Under the pieces are notes generated by a model that had not been told where the DNA came from, made no database searches, and saw only the letters and a list, made by a program, of their open reading frames with translations. Shown here piece by piece: positions 3,172-20,673 of a stretch of DNA of 64,000 bases (positions are counted from its first letter, which is position 1; every line of letters starts with the position of its first letter). Position numbers and translations under genes: made by a program. The stretch is from positions 112,093 through 176,092 of the forward strand of contig JBNGIO010006345.1 of NCBI GenBank assembly GCA_049999805.1, read 5' to 3'. This stretch comes from Folioceros fuciformis. Taxonomy: Eukaryota.

Positions 3172-4072
3172 ATGCTAAGACTCATTTTGCTAGTGTTAAC
3201 TTGGATGACGCCGCTGTTCTCCCAGTCAGGAGGAACTGCGGTTGGGCTAGCTCAGGCTTCTCCGCCGCGTCCACCCAGCACTTGCCCACTTAGCAAAGTC
3301 AGTCTTTCTCATTTTGCAAATAACAAGGTCTACTGAAACATGTGCTCGGTTCATCCTGATGGTATGCTGGTAAATGCCGCAGGTTCGTGCGTGCGAGAGA
3401 TTCAACCGTGTGAATATAGGAGGAGATTTTCTGCCAAGAACATGTTGCAACACACGACCAGGAGTGATACACTCGATTCTGGACATCCCCATGTCCAAGG
3501 CATATGTATGTGTGGATCTGACGTCCAGCCCAGGCTACTGTGGCTCCTGCACCAATTCCTGCGGGTATGGATTTGTCTGTTCTCTGGGCAAGTGCGTACG
3601 TAAACTCTCTCCTCCATTACTTCCTCCTTCGCCTCCCCCACCCATCCGTCATCCTCCTCCTGGTACAACTTCCTGCCATGAAGACCGGGAGTGCCGTCGA
3701 AGCTTTTCTTGCTGCTCCAATCTCTGTACAGACACCAGCACCGATTCAGCAAACTGCAACTTCTGTGGGAACGTCTGCCCAGGCAACAGCTCCTGCATCA
3801 ACTCTGCTTGTGTGGAGTCATGTGACTCCAGCTCCGACTGTAGTGACGTGCACTCAGACTGCTGCGATGGCAAAACATGTCTCAACTTGTTGCTGGATGT
3901 CAACAACTGCGGCGAATGTGGCCATGTCTGCCAAACACTGAACCCAAAGTCTCCCCCTTATTGCAGTAGTGGTATGTGCCAGGGCGAGTGCGAAGAAGAT
4001 TCGGATTGCCCTGCAGATCGCAGCAAGTGCTGCAATACTGGCTGCGTTCCCCCCTCTGTCACCACCTGCTGA
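3172..4072 (+). CDS. Secreted STIG1-like cysteine-rich protein with several Cys modules and a Pro-rich linker
   Basis: Exon 1 (3172-3297) encodes a signal peptide, MLRLILLVLTWMTPLFSQSGG. A phase-0 intron 3298-3382 (GTCAGT...CCGCAG) joins it in frame to ORF 3374-4072. Three STIG1-type modules: CVDLTSSPGYCGSC, CTDTSTDSANCNFCGNVC and CLNLLLDVNNCGECGHVC. An alternative in-frame ATG is at 3157. Confidence 0.82.
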
Positions 4073-8418: not shown

Positions 8419-9074
8419 GGCTCATGCAATAGTTCCAGTCAGTTTGTGAAGCTTCACTCTTGGGAGCATGGCACCGCACCCAGATACTACACCGACCGCT
8501 AATGGAGCTCGTAATCTGGAGGGTCCTCTTCCTCGTGGATCATGCCCTGCTGGAAGGCTGAGTTCACCTTTAGATCACTTCCAACTGTCGGAGCCGATCT
8601 TTCTTTTCTGGGCAACGAGAGAGGCTCTGGTGTCGTGTCGTGTAGTTTTTTTGTCGTTGAATTTCGGGATTAGTTACAGGAACGACCCAGGACGTCTGAG
8701 ATACCTCTAAACACCTTCCGCCTGAAAGGGGAAGGGTTCGTTTCTCAAGTAAACAACAAAATCGCTTTAGGTAACATCATTATCTCGGGATCTGCAGCGT
8801 CCCATTGCTTTTGGGGTCCATGTTTTCCGGCTCGGCTCGGACGCTGGGTGCTCGCTTCATCTTGCCCACTTTTTAGTTCAGATTCAACCAATTCTGTTAG
8901 GTTTAGTCGCAGGTATAGAAAGGAGACATTTTCCATGCAGGTTTTGTTAAGTCTAGCAAAGGGGCGGGAAATAAACTCCCAAAATTATCACATGTCCTTA
9001 AAATCTAAACAAGTATATATTAAAAAGATTTATTCTCTTTAATTTTTACAGAAAAATTCATGCAACATTTTACA

Positions 9075-9160
9075 TTAGGCTTTGGGGACAGCCTTTAGTG
9101 TTCCTTTCATGGTTTATCTCCCTCTCTAAGGGTAGATAGGTTTTCGTATCTTGTTTTCCT
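9075..9160 (+). repeat. Partial copy of a dispersed repeat; same family as the inverted repeats at 14110-14470 and 16890-17108
   Basis: TAGTGTTCCTTTCATGGTTTATCTCCCTCTCTAAGGGTAGATAGGTTTTCGTATCTTG is the near reverse complement of 14111-14173 (AGCAAGATGGAAAAATCCATCTACCCTTAGAGAGGGAGATGATAAACCATACAAGGAATACTA). Confidence 0.8.
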
Positions 9161-9651
9161 AAAATAAATAAATTTTAACATGGTTCTTAAATGACTAAAA
9201 ACTATGAAACGTACATTTGATTTAATTTGATTTTGAGACGAGGCATGAAATCCATTTTGCAATAAAAATTGTCATTTGTAGCAAAATCACAAACTTTTGT
9301 CAAATTTGCAAGCTAATCCTTTTGATTTGCTGCCAAAGGAAGAATATGATTGAGAAACCAGTAAATGGGTATGAATATGTATGTGCTTGAGACCCACTTT
9401 AAGGTGATGTATAATGACTATAAGGATGATTACTGCTCGATAAAAAATATATTTAAAATTAAAATAAAAAAGAAGTAAAAATTGATCAAATGTATTGATG
9501 TAGCTCATGAGATGCTTAAAGCTCTGAATAGAATAGATCAAATTAAGTATTTATTCATAAAGAGGACATGTGCTGATGATATATCCAGAAATCAAGGTGC
9601 GACAAGGAATGGAGATATGTGGCAAAACTAAGAGGAATAGAATAGTTTTTA

Positions 9652-10293
9652 TTAGACGTAATTAAGAACCTCGCAATCCTGTTTTATTTCAGCAGTAACG
9701 TATTCTGGTAGATACGATTCTAATGCCACGTAGTTTGAGTAGGAAACCAGAAAGAAATCGACGTAGCAGGGACCATGGCCGCCACCATCTTCCACCAGGA
9801 CGCACCCATTATGTGTGCTTCCGTGTGGGAGCTTCACGTCCTTCAACGCCGGAATGAACAGCTTGGTTCCGAAGGGTAGGTCGCCGATGGCGACGCTCAC
9901 AAACGGGTGCAATGGATTGTTGGTGGATCCCATCCCGAAGGGGAACTTCTCTTGATCCACAATGAAGAAGTATTGGCGGAACGAATCGTAGGCGATGAGC
10001 TTCCCATTGGATAACATACATGTGCCTTCCTCCACGCACTTTTCAAACGTGTTCACGTCCACGCTCGCAATTGCTAACCCGTTTGAATCCAGGATCAATT
10101 TTGTTTTCGGGCCTGTCAGGTTGATGGGTCTGCCGTCATACGTCACATCAGATGATCCTTCCTTGGCAATCCAGAATTTCGTGAACCTGAGCTGAGAGCT
10201 ACCGTCGTAGCAGGAGGGACTTTCTCCGCTTGCTTTGTGCCAGCCTAGCAACATCCACGTCGCCAACAGGAGGACAGTACTGGCCATCTTCAT
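9652..10293 (-). CDS. Intronless secreted 3D-domain (MltA-like, double-psi beta-barrel) protein
   Basis: Signal peptide MKMASTVLLLATWMLLGWHKASG (ATG at 10293). The C-terminal half, PFGMGS..PLHPFVSVAIGDLPFGTKLFIP...HNGCVLVEDGG...VDFF, resembles the 3D pattern (AVDP..IPLGT..I...DTG....IDIF). Recognised by eye only. Confidence 0.7.
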   Translation of the reverse strand: MKMASTVLLLATWMLLGWHKASGESPSCYDGSSQLRFTKFWIAKEGSSDVTYDGRPINLTGPKTKLILDSNGLAIASVDVNTFEKCVEEGTCMLSNGKLIAYDSFRQYFFIVDQEKFPFGMGSTNNPLHPFVSVAIGDLPFGTKLFIPALKDVKLPHGSTHNGCVLVEDGGGHGPCYVDFFLVSYSNYVALESYLPEYVTAEIKQDCEVLNYV

Positions 10294-11216
10294 CCAAGTT
10301 GAGAAGGCTGTAACAAACTTCGGGTTAGTCTTTGTCTTGCACAAGCACTAGTGACATGGTTTAAGGGGTTATTCTCCGTCTTGGGGAAGCAGCAGCTGAC
10401 CTACTTTCCTCGTGCATGTGCTTTGCCTACCGCACAGTGATGCTTACATCAAAGCTGATTCTTGCATAAAGTTCCGTGAAAGGTAGCACAATACCTTTTA
10501 CAGCGACATAAAATGCCCCGCACAACATTCTCCCGTTTCGAGAATTTGTCAAGACTTTTAGCCGGGTTGGCTGGCCCAGGCGTATCAGCCGTTACTGTCA
10601 GCACGCACAGAAGGATTACCCGTGTCTGAATCGTTTCAGGAGTGGGAGAGGGATTACCCGTGTACGAACCTTTCAGGAGTAACAAATCCGCGCAGGCACT
10701 GCTTTGACAACCAATCTTCCAACCGAATCTTCCTTCGTTCCCCTTGACACCCCACAATAATGGCCAACACTCCCACTTGCGGGCTTCATGTGCGCAGGCA
10801 GGTACCAGCTTGCTCGACTCTGTCTTTCTTCCAGCAGTCTAAATCTCAAGCGTGCAAATGGAATGTGTTGTTCGCAATGCTCTCGCTACATTAAGGAGCA
10901 TGGCAACCTCTAATACCATAACCCAAAAATCCTGGCTCTCTTGTGCCCAATCTGTCTGCAAGCATGTCAAACGACGAGACCAAGGGAAGTGCCATGGTCA
11001 CAAGCTTATGGTAAAACCAGACCCACAGATTGAGGTAGGTACTCCCTCATGGGAAAGAGATCTTCCCACAAATTGAGGTAGGTATTACCTCGTAGGACAG
11101 AGGCCTCATGCTTCAACTTTCTGTTCCACCTACCAACACTCTGTTCCACCCTCCCCTGCAGCTCATGGCGAGCTGCAACGAAAGCCTGGTGATCATCTGG
11201 ACACCACCACTGACGC

Positions 11217-13789
11217 TTAAATCCTCAGGGCAGATGTCTCCCAAACTGCTAGGATCAACAACAATGGAACCAACAACGGCAAGCCAGGGGTACCAGGAGA
11301 TGCCCATGCCCCAAATGATAATGCAATTCGAGACCACCACTGGAGACACACACACACACACAAAACAACAGCAACAAAAGGGTTATGAATGTCCAATGTT
11401 TGCTGCTTCTCACAAATGAAATAAGTAAGTACCCCCTTACCTGCAAGTGTAGGTAGCCGACGAGCAGGCACCCAATGATAAGAAGCACCCTGATTACCCT
11501 TTTGGGGCACCGATCCATCTTTCTAAAGGCCACCACGCTGACCTCCTTCTCAAGTAAAGCGTTTTCTGGAGAAGCCCCTGATACAGAAGGCCTTAAGGTT
11601 GCCTCAGCTTCCGCCCTACCACTTCGAATCTCATCACTCCGCTCTTCGGAGTTTCTTGACATTATCTCACAGGCTGCTCGTTCAGCAGATAGTGCTGCTA
11701 CAAGTACAAATGATGGCAACAACACAGTGTAGAGGAAAGGAAGCACTACGTTCATGTTGTCGGGCACTCCTACATTTGTAACCGCTGAAGCAGTTTCGGA
11801 GGGCCGTAGAGTCCATCCCCACAAGTAAAACCTTCCCGCAGGATAATCCTCTGCAAGGGGAAATCCCCAAAACCATGGGAAAAACGATACCAACAGCCAA
11901 AGGGCGAGCTCTAACCACCATACACCCTTAATCTCCACAACTTCCATCAAAATCCAAAGAGGAAACATGACAATACTTGTCACACAGGAGTCCCTCTTGA
12001 GGTTGGGCACCAGATTCTCATTAACCCCGGCTCTTTTCGTCCAAGCACAAATAATCTTTGGAAGCAAAAGAATGGTGAACATGATCGACAAGTTTAAGTA
12101 AAGAAGAAATATCATGAATCTCTCCCACTCAAAGCCAATAACTAGAAATTCCATCCATGTGTACCGATAACCAGCATCTTCGTTCTTGACAGAAAATGGC
12201 CTGCTCTCAGTTGCCAAAACCGAATTAAATGAGCTGGTAACAGTCACCTCTAGCCAATAGCGGGTAGGTTGAGGATCCACGTACTTTTCTGGTTCCCATG
12301 GTGCTTCAAACAAAGGCCCTCTTGCTCCCAAATTCTCTGAAACCAGATGCATGGATTGCTCATAAACTACCCTGTCTGACCCTCCTGACTTGTCCAAGAT
12401 CTTAGCGGATACTGAGACCTCAGGCTCAGGGGAGAATACAAGAGCTCTGATGGAACGCTGTGGTGCTAAAGATCCAGCCGAAGCTTTGTGTAACATGAAC
12501 CGAGCATCCAAGGGGAATGTTGGGACGATGACTGTAGGCAACCTGAGGTTCTGAGCATCAGAAAAGTTTTTCCCTGCATAGAGTCTGAAATCCGTGAAAG
12601 CAGTCCGACCCTCATCGATGGCAATGATTCGTACAATTCTGCTCATCCTCCAATCACCCATCTCCCATTCCCAAAAGTCAGCTGAGGCGCTTTTCATTTC
12701 TGGCAGAGATAGCTGATGGTGCCTGAATATGTGCTTTCCAAATTTCGCGTGTAAGTGACCACATACAAAAGCCGAGACCCCATGCCTTGCCAATGTCTCC
12801 TCAACACGCTTCCCACTTTGAGTGGCAGCCGTGAATGACATCGGAAAATGTCCGAACACATGCTTCGTTATCCTCCCTGATGTGATATTATCCCATTGAC
12901 CCAATGCCTCGTCCAGCTCTGCCAAGCTCTCATCGTCTGGGTGCCCAAATAAATTCGTTGGTCCCCGGAGTCCAATTTGCATGGCCTGATCCAATCCAAC
13001 AAAAAGATGCCTCCATCCGCTCTTGCCCTTCACAAGCATGAAACAAACGTCAACCACCTCTGCTCTTCTTCAGGCTTCAAAGTCACCACTCTACCAATAT
13101 GTATCCGTGAAACCATATCTGACAGTGTCACAAACGGCATTCACATCTCTCACTACACCAAGCGGACTTCCTGGTCATACCAAAAGCGTGAGGCTGTGCA
13201 CCGATCTGTTCCGTCCAAGAAGTCCACTAAAACTGTAACGGGGAAAGTAGTCCAGTGGGCTGCCAGCACACGGTACTCCATACGTATCATGGTTGCCACG
13301 GATATCCCAAAAGGAATCCACAGGCAGCCCGCTGTCCTTCAGCACGGCCTCCATAGAGCTCTTATATTCAACCCATTCGGCTTCATCCTGCCTTGACGAT
13401 GTGCCTGCCTTATTCTTTGCATCTGACTCCAATACGACGGAACAAAAATCAGCCGGTCTCCCTTCTGCCCAGCCCTAGACTGTGCTGCCGTGTTGCAAAA
13501 CTCAAAGACAGAAGCGGACCAAACAATCAAACCCACCTATCAGATCGCCCGTGATGAGCACCAGCGAAGGCTTAATCATTGCAAGAGCCTGGCCCAGCAG
13601 CATCCTCAGCGCCTGGGCCCTCTCCGGCTTGAAGGCACTGACATGCAGATCCGACACCTGCACCACCCATGCCAGACCTGGAGGTGCATCATTCAGCGGC
13701 ATCGTCTCGCCCATCCTTTTGCCATGGGCATCGCTGACGGACGCGGCGCTGAGCAGGAGGAGTGCAAAGCTCAACGCGGCCAGACCCAT
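11217..13789 (-). CDS. Membrane metallophosphoesterase (calcineurin-like; At3g03305/TMEM62-like), 4 exons
   Basis: Signal peptide MGLAALSFALLLL, then motifs VQVSDLH, LITGDL, DIRGNHD, VFGHFP, CGHLH and WEWEMGDW, with C-terminal TM helices. Introns at about 13423-13535, 13029-13180 and 11340-11440. Confidence 0.92.
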
Positions 13790-14109
13790 TTCTGCACCTG
13801 CTGCACGCTTGGAACTCAATCCAATAGACGATACAAGAAGGCATCTTATAACGCACGCCACTGCAAGTCTACTGCCCTACGACAAAAGAATCCTTTCATT
13901 CCAAGCGCAACTGCAGCAAAATCCGTGCTAACCTATCACATCCCTTCCTAATCAACAGCATTTGTTCCCCAGCCTGTTACAGCAACGGATGTTACCTTGA
14001 AAAGCTCAAAAAAGATACTGAGCAAGTCAAACTTCAAGGCTCCCAACCTGGGCCTGGGAACCAAACCAATTTAACTGCTTTTGGGCTTGGTATCTGATCA
14101 TCTTGGTAT

Positions 14110-14470
14110 GAGCAAGATGGAAAAATCCATCTACCCTTAGAGAGGGAGATGATAAACCATACAAGGAATACTAGGCACCTAAAAACAGTATGGTCTGGGA
14201 CTAAAACAGTATGGTATGGGAGGAGACCCTATGAAGCCTAGCAAGTGAACATCATGATCTAGGAGGAGACCCTGTGAAGCCTAGCACCTAAACATCATGG
14301 TATGGGATGAGACCCTACAAAGCCTAGCACCTAAACATCATGGTCTCGGAAGGAGACCCACGAAGCCTCATCACTACCAATAGCGCCTAAAATATCATGG
14401 TCTAAGAGGAGGAGAAAGGTCTACTACCACTAGGTTTGCTGACACCGCCTCTCTTGCCAATGTTGTCGTA
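14110..14470 (+). repeat. Left arm of a degenerate long inverted repeat (TIR-like) with an internal 43-bp tandem array
   Basis: Two blocks match the reverse complement of 16890-17108: AGCAAGATGG.AA..CATCTACC and GGAGAAAGGTCTACT...GCCTCTCT...TTGTC. About four 43-bp units (ATGGTATGGGAGGAGACCCTATGAAGCCTAGCACCTAAACATC-like) lie at 14211-14370. Confidence 0.7.
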
Positions 14471-15083
14471 CATCTGTCTTGGTATGTATGTATCCAACTT
14501 AACTTAACTACTCCCTTCACAAGTTGCGTGAAGGGGAATCAAGCTTACTAAGTTACAGTCCCACGGACAGGATTACCTCTTGCCTCCACATGCCAAGCAC
14601 GAATACTTTATCAATAATAAATAGTAATATTATTGAAATAGTAACATTATTTATTAGCAGGTTGAAAGTATGTGGTTACAATGAGCTATTAATAATAAAG
14701 CGACCTTTCTTGCTATTTAAACCTTAGACAAGAACCATAAATTGCATGCTTCTCTTATTCTAGATAACATTTTAAGAATAAAAACAAAAGGAAGAATTGC
14801 ATGTTACGTTTTACATCACAAGTAATGACCGGTTATGATGTATTGTTTTATTATTTGAATTATATACTAATTATGATACTTGACTACAATGAAGTATACC
14901 AAAAAAACGTTCATTCTTCTCAAGAAAGATTTGAAGCAAGCTGGTCTATATAAATGGGAGCTCAAAAGAGCGTAGACTTTGAAGGAGCCAAAGCAAGGAA
15001 TTTGAGTTCTTTTCAACTTGTGGGCAGAAGTTGGTGACAAATATCTAAGTTTTTTTTTTTTTTTTTGCCTCTTTCTTCTTAAG

Positions 15084-16583
15084 ATGGGGTTTCCAAAGTT
15101 CACTTGGAGTATTTTGTTGGGAGTATTGTTCTTGTGTTTTTCATGCATTATTATTCATTATACCATTGGTTTTGCGAAGGGTTATTATTCGACAAAGAAC
15201 CTTGGTGATGAGATTTTACCATCGCTAGAGGATATTTTGGGAGGGATTCCTGATTGTACCTTTCCGCTGTTTCATGCAAGTTCATTGAATGAAACATCAC
15301 AACATCCTCTGCGTGATGTACCATCAAGGGTTAAGAGATTGGAAGCATCGAAGAAAATTAATATAAGAAGTCCGGTGGTAACACGCGGGAGATATTGGAA
15401 CGACGAGTATTATGTTAGAGTCAAAATCGGGACGCCAGCACAAGAGACTCTGCTTATTCTAGATACAGGCAGTAGTCTTCTATGGATTAGATGTGAACCA
15501 TGTGAAGGTGAACATTGTAATACACACAATGGTGCTTTCAATCCCACTTTATCAAGCACATATCACCAACTTCAATACAAGAATGGAACACATGCGACCT
15601 TCAATCTTACTTACGGAGATGGAACAACTTCAAGTGGACATCTTGCAAGAGAGATTGTAACTATGAAAAACTTGGCCAATGACGAGAAAAAGATACCAGG
15701 AATTCGTTTTGGATGTGCTTCGAGAGTGGATGATGTGATTTCCGATACCGGTATTTTGGGGTTAGCGAGAGAAGCCAAATTTTCTCTTGCGATGCAACTT
15801 GCAAGGAGAATGAAAGATAAAAGTATGTTGAAGTTTAGGTTAGTATTGAGCAGTGGTAATTAAAATGTTTGTGCATATTTTGATACTTTTAATCTAAATA
15901 TATAATCTCTAACTTACGTTTTATGTTTACAATTGTATGTGTAATCCGTAAGGTACTGCTTTCCAAACAGATTGACGGAGAAGCATGCTACTAGCTATTT
16001 GTCATTTGGAGATATCTCAAATCAGAGTAATGCGAATGGATCTCATATTCATCGCACTCCAATTCTTGCAGCCGATTGGGAGCCTTCTTATTATTATCTC
16101 AATATGCGAGGAATTTCCGTCGGAGGAACACGATTGAACATCGATCCATCAATGTTTGAAGCTACATCTATGATTGGCACTGGCACAGTTATCGATTCAG
16201 GCACAACATTCACAGAGTTAGCTAGCGAAGCAAATGAGCAATTGGCTCATGAGTTCCATGCCCAGGCAAATTTGCCAAGAGTATCTTCTTACTATTATAG
16301 GTTGTGTTACAACATCTCTGATGACGTTTATCATTCAACAAAATTTCCAAGGGTAACTTTTCATTTTCAAAATGCAGTTGCTGATGGAGAGGTTGATATG
16401 CACCTTCATAAAGGAAATCTTTTATTCAAAGACGGATCTCTATATTGCCTTGCATTTTTTGATAGTAGCATAAACACATTGAATATTATTGGGAATATGC
16501 AACAACAAAATTTTTTCTTTGAATATGATTTGCAAAAGAGACAATTAGGGTTTACTCAGTCGTCTTGTTCTTTGTCTAAGTAA
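15084..16583 (+). CDS. Secreted nepenthesin-like aspartic protease (A1 family), 2 exons, AT-rich
   Basis: Signal peptide, then EYYVRVKIGTP, catalytic DTGS, YGDG, FGC and GILGL. Intron 15839-15952 restores KFR|YCFP. Then YYYLNMRGISVGG, the second catalytic DSGTT and IIGNMQQQNF. Confidence 0.93.
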
Positions 16584-16889
16584 GGCTTGTTTCCCAAGTC
16601 ATGGGGTAGATATATGGACTTCCTCATTTCCTTTTTCACATTTATGTTGGTGACATGGTCATAGTGGAAGACACATGGGTCTTAGTCTTTAAGCATGTTG
16701 TGCTCAACCCCTTGGTTGGGCATTAGAGGGGAGCACATCGGCTAACTACGTCCCTAAGCAAGGTGTTTTCTTAATTCGAAAGACATGCAGCGAGGTAGTT
16801 CACATTAGGAAAAATGGACTTGGTCTTCCTCTTTCGTGTATAGTAGCATTCTTTTGGCAAAGGGTTTCCATTTTGCTACAATGAGCATT

Positions 16890-17108
16890 GACTAATACCA
16901 CATACTAGGCAATGACAACGACGAGAGAGGCATTGTCGACAACTTCAAAGACAAGTAGACCTTTTTTCTCCTTCCGCATTGTGATAGCTCAGGTGTCGTT
17001 GGACGTTTTCGAGCTTAGTGGTTTCAAGGGCTATCCTTGTGGCTTGGTCACCCTTGGTGATTTGTCTCACCTCTTTGTAGGTAGATGAGTTTCCCATCTT
17101 GCTTTTCT
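16890..17108 (-). repeat. Right arm of the degenerate long inverted repeat
   Basis: The reverse complement reads AGCAAGATGGGAAACTCATCTACCTACAAAGAGGTGAGACAAATCACC...GGAGAAAAAAGGTCTACTTG...GCCTCTCTCGTCGTTGTC, collinear with 14110-14470. Confidence 0.7.
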
Positions 17109-17621
17109 CAAGTAATTACAATCCAATTTTTCAAAATAGAGACTCTTATTAGACTGGAAACTTAGAGGCATGAAAGCTCTATATTTTCAGCTTAGGTTAG
17201 ATTCAGGACAAGGGTTGGGAGGATCTAATGTTTTAAAAATTTATAAAATATTTTCTTCAAATATATGGCTTTGTTCTGGGACTGAATGTCATGTCTGATA
17301 AGGTTTAGGGTTTAGGGTTATTGAGGGCTCTTTGAAGAATCTTGCAATTCTAAAGGTTATTCTTATTTTACTAATTTCTTTGCTAGTAAATTTAACCTCC
17401 TTTCCATGATACATACAACACATCCTTGTAATGTTCATAAGGTTGCTTTTTGAATAAACATCATAATTTTTTTACAAGCTTAATTAATCCTTAAAGTCTT
17501 AAACAATCGAGCTTTCAGGCCACAAAAGTTCGATAACCATGATCCAAAAGTCTATATGTGTAGCACACCCTTCCTAATGCATGTTACCTGTTCAATCTCT
17601 AGAGATCAAACTTTTGAAAGA

Positions 17622-17984
17622 ATGGCGCGCTTTAGCTTTTTTCTAATTTTTCTTCTTTTTATTACATTTTTCTTCATTGGAGTGAGTGGAATACATCATG
17701 CATGTGCGCTAGCTCCGGCTCCAACTCCAACTCCAACTCCAACTCCAACTCTGGATTATCCTAATCCAGCATTAGAGTCGGCATCAACACCATCTGTGGA
17801 TGGGGAGTGTGATTTGTATCACTGTTGTACTGAAGGCTTGGCGTGCTGCGAGTGGACTTGCGTCGACCTTGAATCAGATAACAAAAACTGCGGATCATGT
17901 GGGTACAAGTGTGGAATAATGGATAAGAATGGGTCATATATTACCCCTCCCATATGCGTAGAAGGGCAGTGCATCATGGATTGA
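17622..17984 (+). CDS. Small secreted STIG1-like Cys-rich protein with a (PT)n linker
   Basis: Signal peptide MARFSFFLIFLLFITFFFIGVSG, then PAPTPTPTPTPT, then CCEWTCVDLESDNKNCGSCGYKC...CVEGQC (STIG1 module). Confidence 0.82.
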   Translation: MARFSFFLIFLLFITFFFIGVSGIHHACALAPAPTPTPTPTPTLDYPNPALESASTPSVDGECDLYHCCTEGLACCEWTCVDLESDNKNCGSCGYKCGIMDKNGSYITPPICVEGQCIMD

Positions 17985-19006
17985 CTAAGGATTTCTTAGA
18001 CATACTTTGTGTGTTCACTGAGTACGTACGATCTTTACTTCAGTCCAGACTATATGTAATCGTGTGAGTATGCATAAGTAATCGTGAGCATTCGTCAGTA
18101 CAATTTGTTCTTGTGCGATGGCTTCGGGATGCAAGCAACTTGTTCTCCCCTCCTGTGGGAGGCATCATACTTAGACACTCACGTCCCACACTGCTGCCCT
18201 CTCCGTTTTCGAGGGTCAAACGTCCCTCTTCCTAGAAAGCTTGAGATCCGCAAGCAGCGCAGAACAAGAGCAGCTGCCCGATGTGGGATTAGGGTTTTAT
18301 CATACACACACAACAGCGTCTTGGATTTGGACTCCTCTGGACCAAACGGAGTTGAAGGCGGTTAGGTCTGCAAGAGACGATTTCTCCGCGAAGATTCGAA
18401 CATTCGAGGCGGAGAGTTCCTAGTGAACGCGGATGCTACCTGAACAGCTTCCATTGCATGCAGGAGAGCCGTGGCAACTGAACGAGATCCCTGGCCAAGA
18501 AGAGACGGCAAACCGCAGCCAGCAGCGGCATGGTGATTCCTCGGAACTTTCTCATACGGACATCACTGTCGACAGAGTCTTGTTTCGGGTAGATTGAATA
18601 CTTCACTCTGTTATTGATAATACTTGGATATCCATATTCAAATTAGAGCCTTTCAAAAACAGCCGGCCCTAGGTATGTACCGAGCGAGACAGCCTGGTAA
18701 GTAGACTCCGTCATAGATGTTCCGTCGTAGATGCAATGAAGTTGGGTGCCACACCATGGATACCATCTTCACGACGAAACATTTCTTGCTTCGTGCATGT
18801 CCTCCGGTTGAACAATACAGTACTCCTCCTGACGCTGAAGAGAAACCAGGAAATACTCCGAGCGCAGGCAGAAAAGCCACACTTGAGGAATCCAATCTGC
18901 TTCTGGTTGTGTGTGCAAGCCAGTCTTGGAGGCCTCCACCAATTGGCAAATTATAACATGCTTGGTATATAGTCGACATTCCACTGCGACTGACGGGAAG
19001 GAGAAC

Positions 19007-20053
19007 CTATCTCTTCTTTGAGAATCCACCTGACATGGAAGGCTCTCGCAAGGTTTCCAGCTCTCTGATAAGGAGGTCTTTCTCTTCCACAAACTGATCA
19101 TCCTCCTTGTCAAGATGAAAGTTCTCCAGAAACCTCAACAACTTTTCCCGGTTCTTCACCAGCAAATCAATGATTTCTTGGGACTTGTTGGGATTAGCGA
19201 CAAACACCTTGAATACGTGGAACGCTGAGGATTGGATGTTCTTGCTAGGGTCCTTGATCAATATCATCATCATCCTCAGGTTGCGCACCTCAGAAATGTA
19301 CTGCATCATAATGGGAGCATTCGGCCGCTCTAACAGGAACTGCCCTAAAAGCTTCAGGGACTGCCTCCGTGTGACATAGTTGGTCGAGCTGAGAAGTCTG
19401 TCGTACAAGTCAAAGAAGTGTCTGTAGTGCGTGTGGAGAAACTCAAAGACAACAGTATCGTGCCTGGTGAGCAGCTCCTTCAAAGTGGTGAATGCATCAG
19501 AAGCAATGTCGAAATTTGGCAGCTCCACGTACTTGAAGAAGAGTTCAAAACTGGCAGACTCCAACATATACTTGGCCAGACCAGGATACCTTGCACACTC
19601 TCTTAGCATGTTCCCACAATTCAGGGCGATGTCCTTGTTCTCGTAGCATGACACAAGAAAGTCGAGCATCTCAGGGTGACCTTGCACGTATTCCAGCCCG
19701 CAGTTCGTGGATCCAACCTTCTGTCTTAACAGAGTGCACCAAATGTGCACCGCGTCCTTCCTTGCCTCCCAGCCAAGAGTCGGCATCTTCTGGACCAAGA
19801 GCTCCAGGAAATCATCCTTGCACACCTCCACAGTGAGCTGCGCAACCTGCTCAGAATTTGGATCCACGTCGCCTTCGCCCACAAGCATATGCTTCATTGC
19901 CAGCAGATTCTTGTCCACCTCCTCCAGAGCCTTGTCCAGGAGGCGGACATCAGACACGGTTTTGGAGTCCAGGGCAAGTAGCGCATCCTTGGTCACCCTC
20001 ACCAAATCCTGTGGCGACTTCAACTTGAATTGCTTAAAGAATGAGAAAGACAT
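19007..20053 (-). CDS. MO25: MO25/CAB39-family scaffold protein (At5g18940-like), intronless CDS
   Basis: MSFSFFK..KSPQDLV, LGWEARKD, IALNCGNMLREC, FDIASDAF.TLKELLTRH, NYVTRRQSLKLLG, AFHVFKVFVANPNK. Confidence 0.95.
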   Translation of the reverse strand: MSFSFFKQFKLKSPQDLVRVTKDALLALDSKTVSDVRLLDKALEEVDKNLLAMKHMLVGEGDVDPNSEQVAQLTVEVCKDDFLELLVQKMPTLGWEARKDAVHIWCTLLRQKVGSTNCGLEYVQGHPEMLDFLVSCYENKDIALNCGNMLRECARYPGLAKYMLESASFELFFKYVELPNFDIASDAFTTLKELLTRHDTVVFEFLHTHYRHFFDLYDRLLSSTNYVTRRQSLKLLGQFLLERPNAPIMMQYISEVRNLRMMMILIKDPSKNIQSSAFHVFKVFVANPNKSQEIIDLLVKNREKLLRFLENFHLDKEDDQFVEEKDLLIRELETLREPSMSGGFSKKR

Positions 20054-20673
20054 GGTCCCCTACAGTTAGCAACCTGACGCAATGGTGCTCCACTGAGCAT
20101 GTAGATCTGGACCAGGCATGATCTATTGCAGGATAGTATGTACCCAAGGCCGCATCATTCTTCATTCCTCAAAGTACACTCCATGACCCATTGTCACTCA
20201 GCTCCAGCTCAGGCCCAACTCGCCAGACCCAAGTCTTCACCCACCCACAACCTTCTCCGGTTTACCCTCTGGAATGCAAGACGATCACGTAACTGACAGT
20301 CTTGACAGAGGCTTCGTCCGTGAATGGCAACCGAAACATTTTGCACCGACAGCTGAGACAAACGTTCCGTGATGAGTTCCTGTCTTGTCCCTGCTGACTG
20401 GTGATTCTTCCCATCAAGGCAACTGCTGGTCTTGAAGGAAGCATCCAGCTTCTCAATTAGGGTTTTGAGGCTCTGGGCATTTCGACTTCGTCCCTTCTTA
20501 TTTTGTCTGGAGGCTTCGTGCCCGATCACCTGGAGGGAGGATTACAGCGTTGATACGTTTCGTTTGGAGACATTCTTTTGCAGCGCCACAAGATGATTGT
20601 GGATCTGTCCATTTCGTGGTTCAGGAGCAGGAGAAAAATGGATGGGGGCTGATACAAGCGCAGGAGATATGAG

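Follow-up and report, generated by a model that had tools for sequence, protein, structure and literature searches.

We analyzed a minus-strand open reading frame (ORF) in a 64,000-nucleotide stretch of contig JBNGIO010006345.1 from Folioceros fuciformis; this whole stretch is called the window below, and all coordinates are window positions. The coding sequence (CDS) occupies 9652-10293, with 213 codons from the ATG at 10293 plus a TAA stop, and is uninterrupted. We refer to its product as the MltA-like protein; its translation contains the peptide blocks PFVSVAIGDLPFGTKLFIP, HNGCVLVEDGG and VDFF. A preliminary description, made from the letters of the window, had proposed a single-exon gene for a secreted 3D-domain protein that passed from a microbe to a plant. 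The evidence presented here indicates that this is probably a nuclear, transcribed plant gene that reached the plant by horizontal transfer from an early-diverging fungus, most likely one of the Mucoromycotina near the Endogonales, and that it encodes a compact, disulfide-rich and presumably secreted protein whose two-domain architecture is that of the bacterial lytic transglycosylase MltA. The horizontal origin of the preliminary description is thereby retained as the best reading, and its microbial donor becomes a fungus, not a bacterium.

Three sequencing runs of one organism carried the locus. A single sample supplied the DNA of X1 and X2; X3 belongs to another study, made earlier, and its RNA label is a guess. 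In runs X4 to X8 next to none of the window's sequence words were present. One DNA contig from X1 (record 2, 2200 nt) covered 8838-11009 with 0 differences. From the 3' end of the upstream SAICAR-synthetase transcript (RNA record 17 reaches 8986), this contig extends over an AT-rich tract and the complete ORF into the transcribed 3' region of the downstream TMEM62-like gene, where it ends. The X3 contigs skipped 11 canonical GT..AG introns of the SAICAR-synthetase gene and therefore derive from spliced RNA. Among them, a 681-nt contig (record 18) was identical to 9629-10309, again with 0 differences. A joint from 10495 to 10307, seen at depth 77, skipped 187 bases bounded by GT..AG on the minus strand, and a 3015-nt contig of the TMEM62-like mRNA (record 19) ran from 13877 to 10495, ending exactly at the splice donor of this leader intron. 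The MltA-like gene is physically integrated in plant DNA between plant genes, and it is transcribed; with integration and transcription in place, a horizontal origin is the best reading of the locus.

The CDS itself is intronless and the transcript is spliced in its 5' leader, so that the single exon of the preliminary description holds for the coding sequence and not for the transcript. The presumed foreign ORF carries host-type expression signals, namely this leader intron and a polyadenylation signal. Between the TMEM62-like stop codon and the splice donor (10495-11218) there are 12 ATGs, of which one, at 10528, shares the reading frame of the MltA-like ORF through the splice and would add 16 residues; no AATAAA or ATTAAA occurs on the minus strand within this interval. 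The interval could be part of a read-through transcription unit with two ORFs or the site of two overlapping untranslated regions (UTRs), and the contigs are compatible with one read-through transcript as well as with two overlapping ones, between which they cannot tell. The mean word depth in X1 was similar along the locus, at 11.7 over the ORF and 13.1 and 9.3 in the flanks, values that do not measure copy number and were not used as evidence. A tblastn search with the protein and two relatives as queries found no second copy of the gene in the 64-kb window.

Several features of the protein suggest that it is secreted. As the preliminary description had claimed, the N-terminus resembles a signal peptide: by a hydropathy heuristic, residues 4-17 form a hydrophobic core (Kyte-Doolittle 11-residue mean up to 2.26), and A-S-G precedes E24. 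In the structural model described below, a low-confidence helix at residues 5-19 is followed by a very confident body. Six cysteines (residues 28, 86, 92, 164, 176 and 207) are invariant among eight close relatives, which is the pattern expected of a secreted protein.

Sequence searches with the protein recovered 581 representatives at E<=1e-3, 112 at E<=1e-10 and 17 at E<=1e-30. Neither Pfam 3D (PF06725) nor the Pfam model of the MltA insert domain matched the protein at E<=10. Pfam 3D was matched by 13 of 64 aligned relatives (best E 4e-13); among the eight close relatives, one matched Pfam 3D (E 0.0052) and one matched DPBB_1 (E 0.016). The link to 3D is therefore transitive, as it is reached by relatives and not by the protein itself. 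A profile of the eight close sequences had no match among PDB sequences at E<=10, and for a 64-sequence profile YuiC was the sole sequence reached (E 0.93). The ESM Atlas gave a recognition value of 2162, below the 2300 mark; its nearest clusters, from Zoopagomycota, Mucoromycota and a bacterial 3D family (Myxococcota), were treated as leads only.

An AlphaFold2 model built with the 64-sequence alignment as input had a predicted local distance difference test score (pLDDT) of 92.7 and a predicted template modeling score (pTM) of 0.84. With this model, all 12 Foldseek matches at E<=1e-3 were MltA-family lytic transglycosylases, which we take to be CAZy family GH102. Structure alignment with VIA-align gave the best match over both domains to MltA (PDB 2ae0, 2pi8 and 7esj), with Z 10.2-10.7 over 157-163 residues. 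Model residues 25-206 aligned with residues 44-381 of Acinetobacter MltA (7esj_A) at Z 10.7, with a root mean square deviation (rmsd) of 3.5 over 162 residues, and E. coli MltA with chitohexaose (2pi8_A) gave Z 10.6. The barrel-only protein YuiC aligned over model residues 30-194 at Z 7.6-7.9 (81-89 residues; rmsd 2.5 for the alignment at Z 7.9). Expansins, kiwellins and GH45 proteins scored below MltA (Z 5.3-7.1, 80-99 residues) and had the barrel alone in common. Because MltA aligns over both domains and YuiC over the barrel only, the model points to a compact form of the entire MltA with both its domains rather than to a 3D barrel alone: a double-psi beta-barrel (DPBB) with an inserted beta domain is predicted. 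The 3D/MltA-like assignment of the preliminary description is thus borne out by the modeled fold and by the Pfam matches of relatives, and it fails for the protein itself when that is compared directly with every Pfam model.

Two routes of alignment led to the same candidate active-site residues. In a profile alignment to YuiC (E 0.93), D138, D169 and D179 of the MltA-like protein fall on D129, D151 and D162. In the portion of the YuiC study used here (PMC4499186), YuiC D162 is equated with MltA D308, the catalytic carboxylate, which is oriented by a conserved Thr; D151 is equated with MltA D297, which binds the N-acetyl nitrogen of the -2 sugar, and D129 with MltA D261. Independently, D206 and D217 of a bacteria-like relative (P0076) align with D297 and D308 of E. 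coli MltA, and their columns in the 64-row alignment hold D169 and D179 of the MltA-like protein. Taken together with the published equivalences, these alignments identify Asp179, in YVDFF, as the putative equivalent of the catalytic MltA D308 and Asp169 as that of D297. The preliminary description had assigned catalysis to the Asp of VED, which is Asp169; that assignment has to be moved to Asp179. Its C-terminal block with three Asp positions was recovered, with Asp conserved at D169 in 64, at D179 in 60 and at D138 in 43 of the 64 aligned relatives. In the same alignment T38 is conserved in 54 rows, E89 in 61, and H161, G163 and G90 in all 64. In weak HMMER alignments, the EGT motif that lies in the inserted domain falls on the QGSG stretch of MltA.

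The relatives point to fungi. Organism names were attached to 3 of 7 and 15 of 38 matches in two listings and to 4 of 9 and 8 of 10 clusters in two others; all of the named relatives were early-diverging fungi, and no plant, alga or other non-fungal eukaryote was among them in these four listings. This agrees with the preliminary description, which had placed a similar protein layout in such fungi. Most were Mucorales, Umbelopsis or Endogonales, together with Rhizophagus, Conidiobolus (Entomophthoromycota) and Hyaloraphidium (Monoblepharomycota), and the nearest were Endogonales. Three relatives from Mucorales (P0173, P0102 and P0176) fuse the MltA-like module to LysM (PF01476). Two signature peptides taken from the eight-row alignment, one of them HNGCV-x-V-[DE]-D, were scanned against 185,579 prokaryote species genomes; the 42 pattern matches included no relative, a result that applies to those patterns only. 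A metagenome scan yielded 23 loci, with a best identity of 46%, all on short contigs without plant context. In four environmental relatives (L004, L010, L013 and L015) the matches were split across frames, indicating introns inside the CDS at different places; the plant copy has none.

In a quick 78-row tree, nine bacteria-like rows were split from 69 eukaryote-like rows with a starred support value of 96 in the Shimodaira-Hasegawa-like approximate likelihood ratio test (SH-aLRT), and the window protein lay in a 43-row clade starred at 97. A careful 46-row tree placed the window protein inside starred clades of 37 rows (96/91) and 34 rows (95/85) with Mucorales, Umbelopsis and Endogonales. Within these it belonged to a 12-row group (83/86) whose named members, Endogone, two Jimgerdemannia and Bifiguratus, are all Endogonales in the NCBI taxonomy. 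A tree constrained to keep the 21 named Mucoromycotina rows in one group was rejected by an approximately unbiased (AU) test (p 0.0007); since rows without an organism name interleave with them, this test is too strict. These comparisons suggest a donor that was fungal rather than bacterial. It was probably an Endogonales-like fungus of the Mucoromycotina, although the nesting within that crown comes without statistical security. The phylogeny called for in the preliminary description thus places the window protein inside Mucoromycotina clades and leaves a position outside them unrejected.

There are points that weigh against this reading. The protein itself had no match in Pfam, NCBIfam or PDB sequences at E<=10, and the sequence links of its family to YuiC and MltA are weak (E 0.18-0.93). 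The residue aligned with MltA D261, D138, is probably its equivalent, in an alignment that slips by one across a loop two residues shorter. In the careful tree the window protein's own 12-row group is unstarred, and a fairer AU test did not reject a tree in which the window protein lies outside the Mucoromycotina clade of 36 further rows (p 0.112, log-likelihood difference 24). Base composition does not mark the ORF as foreign: its GC content is 0.50, with 0.63 at third codon positions (GC3), compared with 0.50 and 0.52 for neighboring CDS, and environmental relatives have GC3 of 0.55-0.62. The DNA of X1 and X2 may come from the very sample that the window was assembled from, and the splice joint comes from one run (X3), with only 28 letters on its shorter side. 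Lastly, five close rows without an organism name (P0002, P0003, P0009, P0010 and P0019) might include orthologues from related plants. P0009 is 51% identical to the MltA-like protein, and as the best match of the TMEM62-like neighbor reaches only 52%, a sequence at that distance could be a related-plant orthologue. If so, the age of the transfer would change and its direction would stay. These rows might equally be unsampled fungi. The window protein (P0001) has an LL-x-GW signal-peptide motif and small indels in common with P0009 and P0019, which hints at a single clade for the three.

Other origins were weighed against a transfer from a fungus. Hornwort-type plants host Mucoromycota and the closest named relatives are such fungi, so one possibility is that fungal contaminant DNA was misjoined into a plant assembly. 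Against this, a single X1 contig, free of differences, links the 3' end of one neighbor to position 11009 with the ORF in between; RNA contigs of another study match the ORF at 100% identity and connect it by a GT..AG intron to sequence that continues into the TMEM62-like mRNA; and the nearest fungal protein is only 41-47% identical. The spanning contig and the spliced joint make contamination or misassembly very unlikely, to the point of being negligible. Another possibility is an old eukaryotic or streptophyte gene that descended vertically and was lost in nearly all other plants. The host-like composition, the position outside the Mucoromycotina crown that the AU test permits, and the close unnamed rows, which could be other plants, would suit such a history. 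It is nonetheless improbable: the relatives listed include no organism-named plant, alga or other non-fungal eukaryote, while the same collection yields more than 100 plant orthologues for the TMEM62-like neighbor, and the free tree nests the window protein among Endogonales. A gene received directly from a bacterium, with the fungi having acquired theirs separately, appears highly improbable to us. In its favor, the members of the 3D/MltA superfamily are mostly bacterial, lipoprotein-like N-termini and Pfam 3D matches occur among the lower-ranked relatives, and a bacterial cluster is one of the three nearest in the ESM Atlas; on the other hand, the bacteria-like rows separate from the eukaryote-like ones in the quick tree, the signature scan of prokaryote genomes found no relative, and the rows with the highest identities (41-51%) are fungal or fungus-like.

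With regard to function, it could be speculated that the protein keeps an MltA-like barrel and cleaves no glycan, serving instead in carbohydrate binding, in wall loosening or as a protein inhibitor, in the manner of secreted DPBB proteins of plants and fungi such as expansins, kiwellins, cerato-platanins and loosenins. DPBB proteins of this kind appear in the fold list at Z 5.8-7.1, the family has invariant residues of its own outside the classical 3D motif (H161, G163 and E89-G90), and the first Asp, D138, aligns ambiguously. However, MltA enzymes score clearly higher and align over about twice as many residues (157-163, compared with at most 95), Asp is present at the counterparts of the catalytic and the N-acetyl-binding position in 60 and in all 64 relatives, respectively, the orienting Thr is retained in 54, and YuiC, an even smaller relative, is catalytically active according to the portion of its study cited above (PMC4499186). 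We regard a non-enzymatic protein as unlikely, though as a rival to be taken seriously.

If the MltA-like protein is an enzyme of the MltA type, its predicted mature form of about 190 residues would be exported, and the groove between its two domains would bind a glycan containing beta-1,4-linked N-acetylglucosamine (GlcNAc), either peptidoglycan or chitin. Asp179, oriented by Thr38, would be the single acid/base that cuts the glycosidic bond, and cleavage would leave a 1,6-anhydro end, as with MltA and YuiC. Peptidoglycan is the classical substrate of the MltA family. The crystal of MltA with chitohexaose, the action of YuiC on penta-GlcNAc, from which it is stated to yield a 1,6-anhydro disaccharide (PMC4499186, in the portion used here), and the LysM domains of three fungal relatives suggest that chitin or chito-oligomers may be an equally plausible substrate. 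The protein might then have a role in defense or in managing fungal or bacterial partners. A more elaborate scenario can be drawn from the layout of the locus. The ORF would have been captured in the 3' region of the TMEM62-like gene, and transcripts from or through that gene would be spliced onto it via a new 187-base intron, giving two cistrons per unit. The product, a secreted fungal-type lytic transglycosylase, would cut chitin or peptidoglycan of Mucoromycotina or cyanobacterial partners and release 1,6-anhydro-capped oligomers as symbiosis or immunity signals. In this complete form we consider the scenario distinctly unlikely.

The protein retains counterparts of MltA Asp297 and of the catalytic Asp308, which are spaced by 10 residues here and by 11 in MltA. 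Unlike MltA, the mature protein is predicted to have about 190 residues instead of about 335, lacks a detectable sequence match of its own, has a eukaryotic signal-peptide-like N-terminus where MltA has a bacterial lipoprotein anchor, and possesses six conserved cysteines and an extra invariant H-N-G-C motif; its gene is a plant nuclear one. With YuiC and the Sps 3D-domain proteins of Firmicutes (PDB 4wli; Z 7.9, rmsd 2.5) it has the minimal 3D barrel in common, whereas YuiC is without the inserted domain and forms a domain-swapped dimer, and only 81-89 residues align. The full-length layout is that of Mucoromycota proteins annotated as "3D domain-containing" or hypothetical, such as Endogone RUS21111.1, Jimgerdemannia RUP23264.1 and Bifiguratus OZJ06336.1: signal peptide, cysteine pattern and an HNGCV-x-V-D-D...DFF block, at 41-51% identity over nearly the whole protein. 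In contrast to the plant copy, many of the fungal proteins end in low-complexity tails or have LysM domains at the N-terminus, and some environmental relatives have introns inside the CDS.

Our literature search found no paper on the function of this compact MltA-like family in fungi or plants, and no MltA-type lytic transglycosylase described from a plant. In the genome of the hornwort Anthoceros angustus, 19 genes in 14 families have been attributed to bacteria or fungi, with five families of fungal origin, including Mucoromycota (PMC7027989, as far as its main text goes); those transfers from fungus to bryophyte are the same kind of event as the one proposed here. The families named there are a glyoxalase, an NAD-binding dehydrogenase, a glucuronyl hydrolase, a DNA methyltransferase and a glycosyl hydrolase. 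The terms "transglycosylase" and "3D domain" have 0 occurrences in that main text, the full list being in a supplementary table, so a prior listing of this gene there is possible. Fungus-to-bryophyte transfer is thus already known, and the new element is a compact, presumably secreted eukaryotic MltA-like protein domesticated in a plant.

The features of the locus are collected in Table 1. Its intron-rich plant neighbors are as the preliminary description had them, and so are the adjoining AT-rich tract and the repeat fragment.

Table 1. Features of the MltA-like locus (window coordinates).
Feature	Coordinates	Strand	Evidence and remarks
Dispersed-repeat fragment, 31 bases	9096..9126		Short DNA contigs of depth 55 and 253, hence taken as a dispersed repeat; contig ends loose at either side; occurs once in the window
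AT-rich tract between genes (29% GC), 3' of the MltA-like gene	9130..9650		No RNA contig cover in bin 9124-9407
Short 3' UTR, with AATAAA at 9648-9653 overlapping the stop codon	9629..9651	minus	RNA contig ends at 9629, 20 nt past AATAAA
3D block, codons 128-181 (L-x-PFVSVA..D138 ... HNGCV-x-V-E-D169 ... YVD179FF)	9751..9912	minus	Aligned to YuiC D129/D151/D162 and, via P0076, to E. coli MltA D297/D308
Codon of Asp179, putative equivalent of catalytic MltA Asp308 / YuiC Asp162	9757..9759	minus	Alignments; Asp in 60/64 relatives
Codon of Asp169 (VED), putative equivalent of MltA D297	9787..9789	minus	Alignments; Asp in 64/64 relatives
Codon of Asp138, probable equivalent of MltA Asp261	9880..9882	minus	Alignment ambiguous by one position; loop 2 residues shorter
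Predicted domain inserted in the double-psi beta-barrel, codons ~61-125, with invariant E89-G90; matches MltA domain B	9919..10113	minus	Structure alignment; boundaries approximate
Signal-peptide-like N-terminus, codons 1-23	10225..10293	minus	Hydropathy heuristic; low-confidence model helix 5-19
187-base spliceosomal intron in the 5' leader	10308..10494	minus	GT 10494-10493, AG 10309-10308; CTAAC branch-like site; pyrimidine-rich acceptor 14 nt upstream of ATG
Transcribed non-coding stretch from TMEM62-like stop to splice donor, ~720 bases	10495..11218	minus	X3 record 19; belongs to the TMEM62-like gene as 3' UTR, to the MltA-like gene as non-coding first exon, or to both

The upstream neighbor is a plus-strand, multi-intron gene with a SAICAR_synt exon (PF01259, E 2.3e-4), and its 11 GT..AG joints were those found in the RNA contigs. 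Downstream, on the minus strand, lies a TMEM62/At3g03305-like metallophosphoesterase gene, for which a spliced CDS model gave a 733-residue ORF with its stop at about 11219. The intron at 11337-11440 of this gene contains a repeat (11337-11376) that was skipped in contig placement, and the intron borders of the CDS model are therefore approximate. Its exon at 11441-13024 had 166 matches at E<=1e-20, and the organism-named ones among the 120 listed were all land plants. The best of these matches was the 52% one given above, and orthologues from Marchantia, Sphagnum, Diphasiastrum and Taxus were about equally distant (37-43%). Such near-equal distance to liverwort, moss, lycophyte and conifer orthologues would fit a hornwort host.

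Elsewhere in the window we noted several other genes, of which the STIG1-like, TAXi-type and Mo25-like ones count among the plant surroundings of the locus. A Cys-rich ORF at 3374-4072 on the plus strand matched STIG1-like (PF04885, E 1.4e-9) and, weakly, WAP models, and it likely encodes a small secreted protein. A 4-kb block at 14001-18000 is AT-rich, with a GC content of 0.37-0.40 compared with about 0.50 elsewhere; it contains a TAXi-type aspartyl protease gene with two long ORFs (15006-16583) and a small Cys-rich ORF (17484-17984) whose product has a hydrophobic N-terminus and no Pfam match. Within this block, X1 and X2 DNA contigs joined 14401 back to 14290 with 12 other letters between, and had loose ends at 14312 and 14374, which suggests that a repeat lies here or that the assembly differs in structure. 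A Mo25-like protein (PF08569, E 7e-131) is encoded by a complete, single 350-codon ORF without an intron at 19007-20059 on the minus strand. An intronless ORF is unusual among these intron-rich neighbors, and it may be a retrogene.

The 5'-leader intron and the polyadenylation signal that overlaps the stop codon record how the presumed foreign ORF came to be equipped for expression in its host. Endogonales are named among hornwort endophytes in the Anthoceros angustus study (PMC7027989, main text), and the nearest named relatives of the MltA-like protein belong to this order; if the host is a hornwort, donor and recipient would be living partners. This would tie gene transfer to ecological contact. 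The likely substrates, chitin and peptidoglycan, are wall polymers of fungal and cyanobacterial partners, which makes this a candidate gene for partner control or signal generation. If the protein is active, it would be a new type of plant enzyme.

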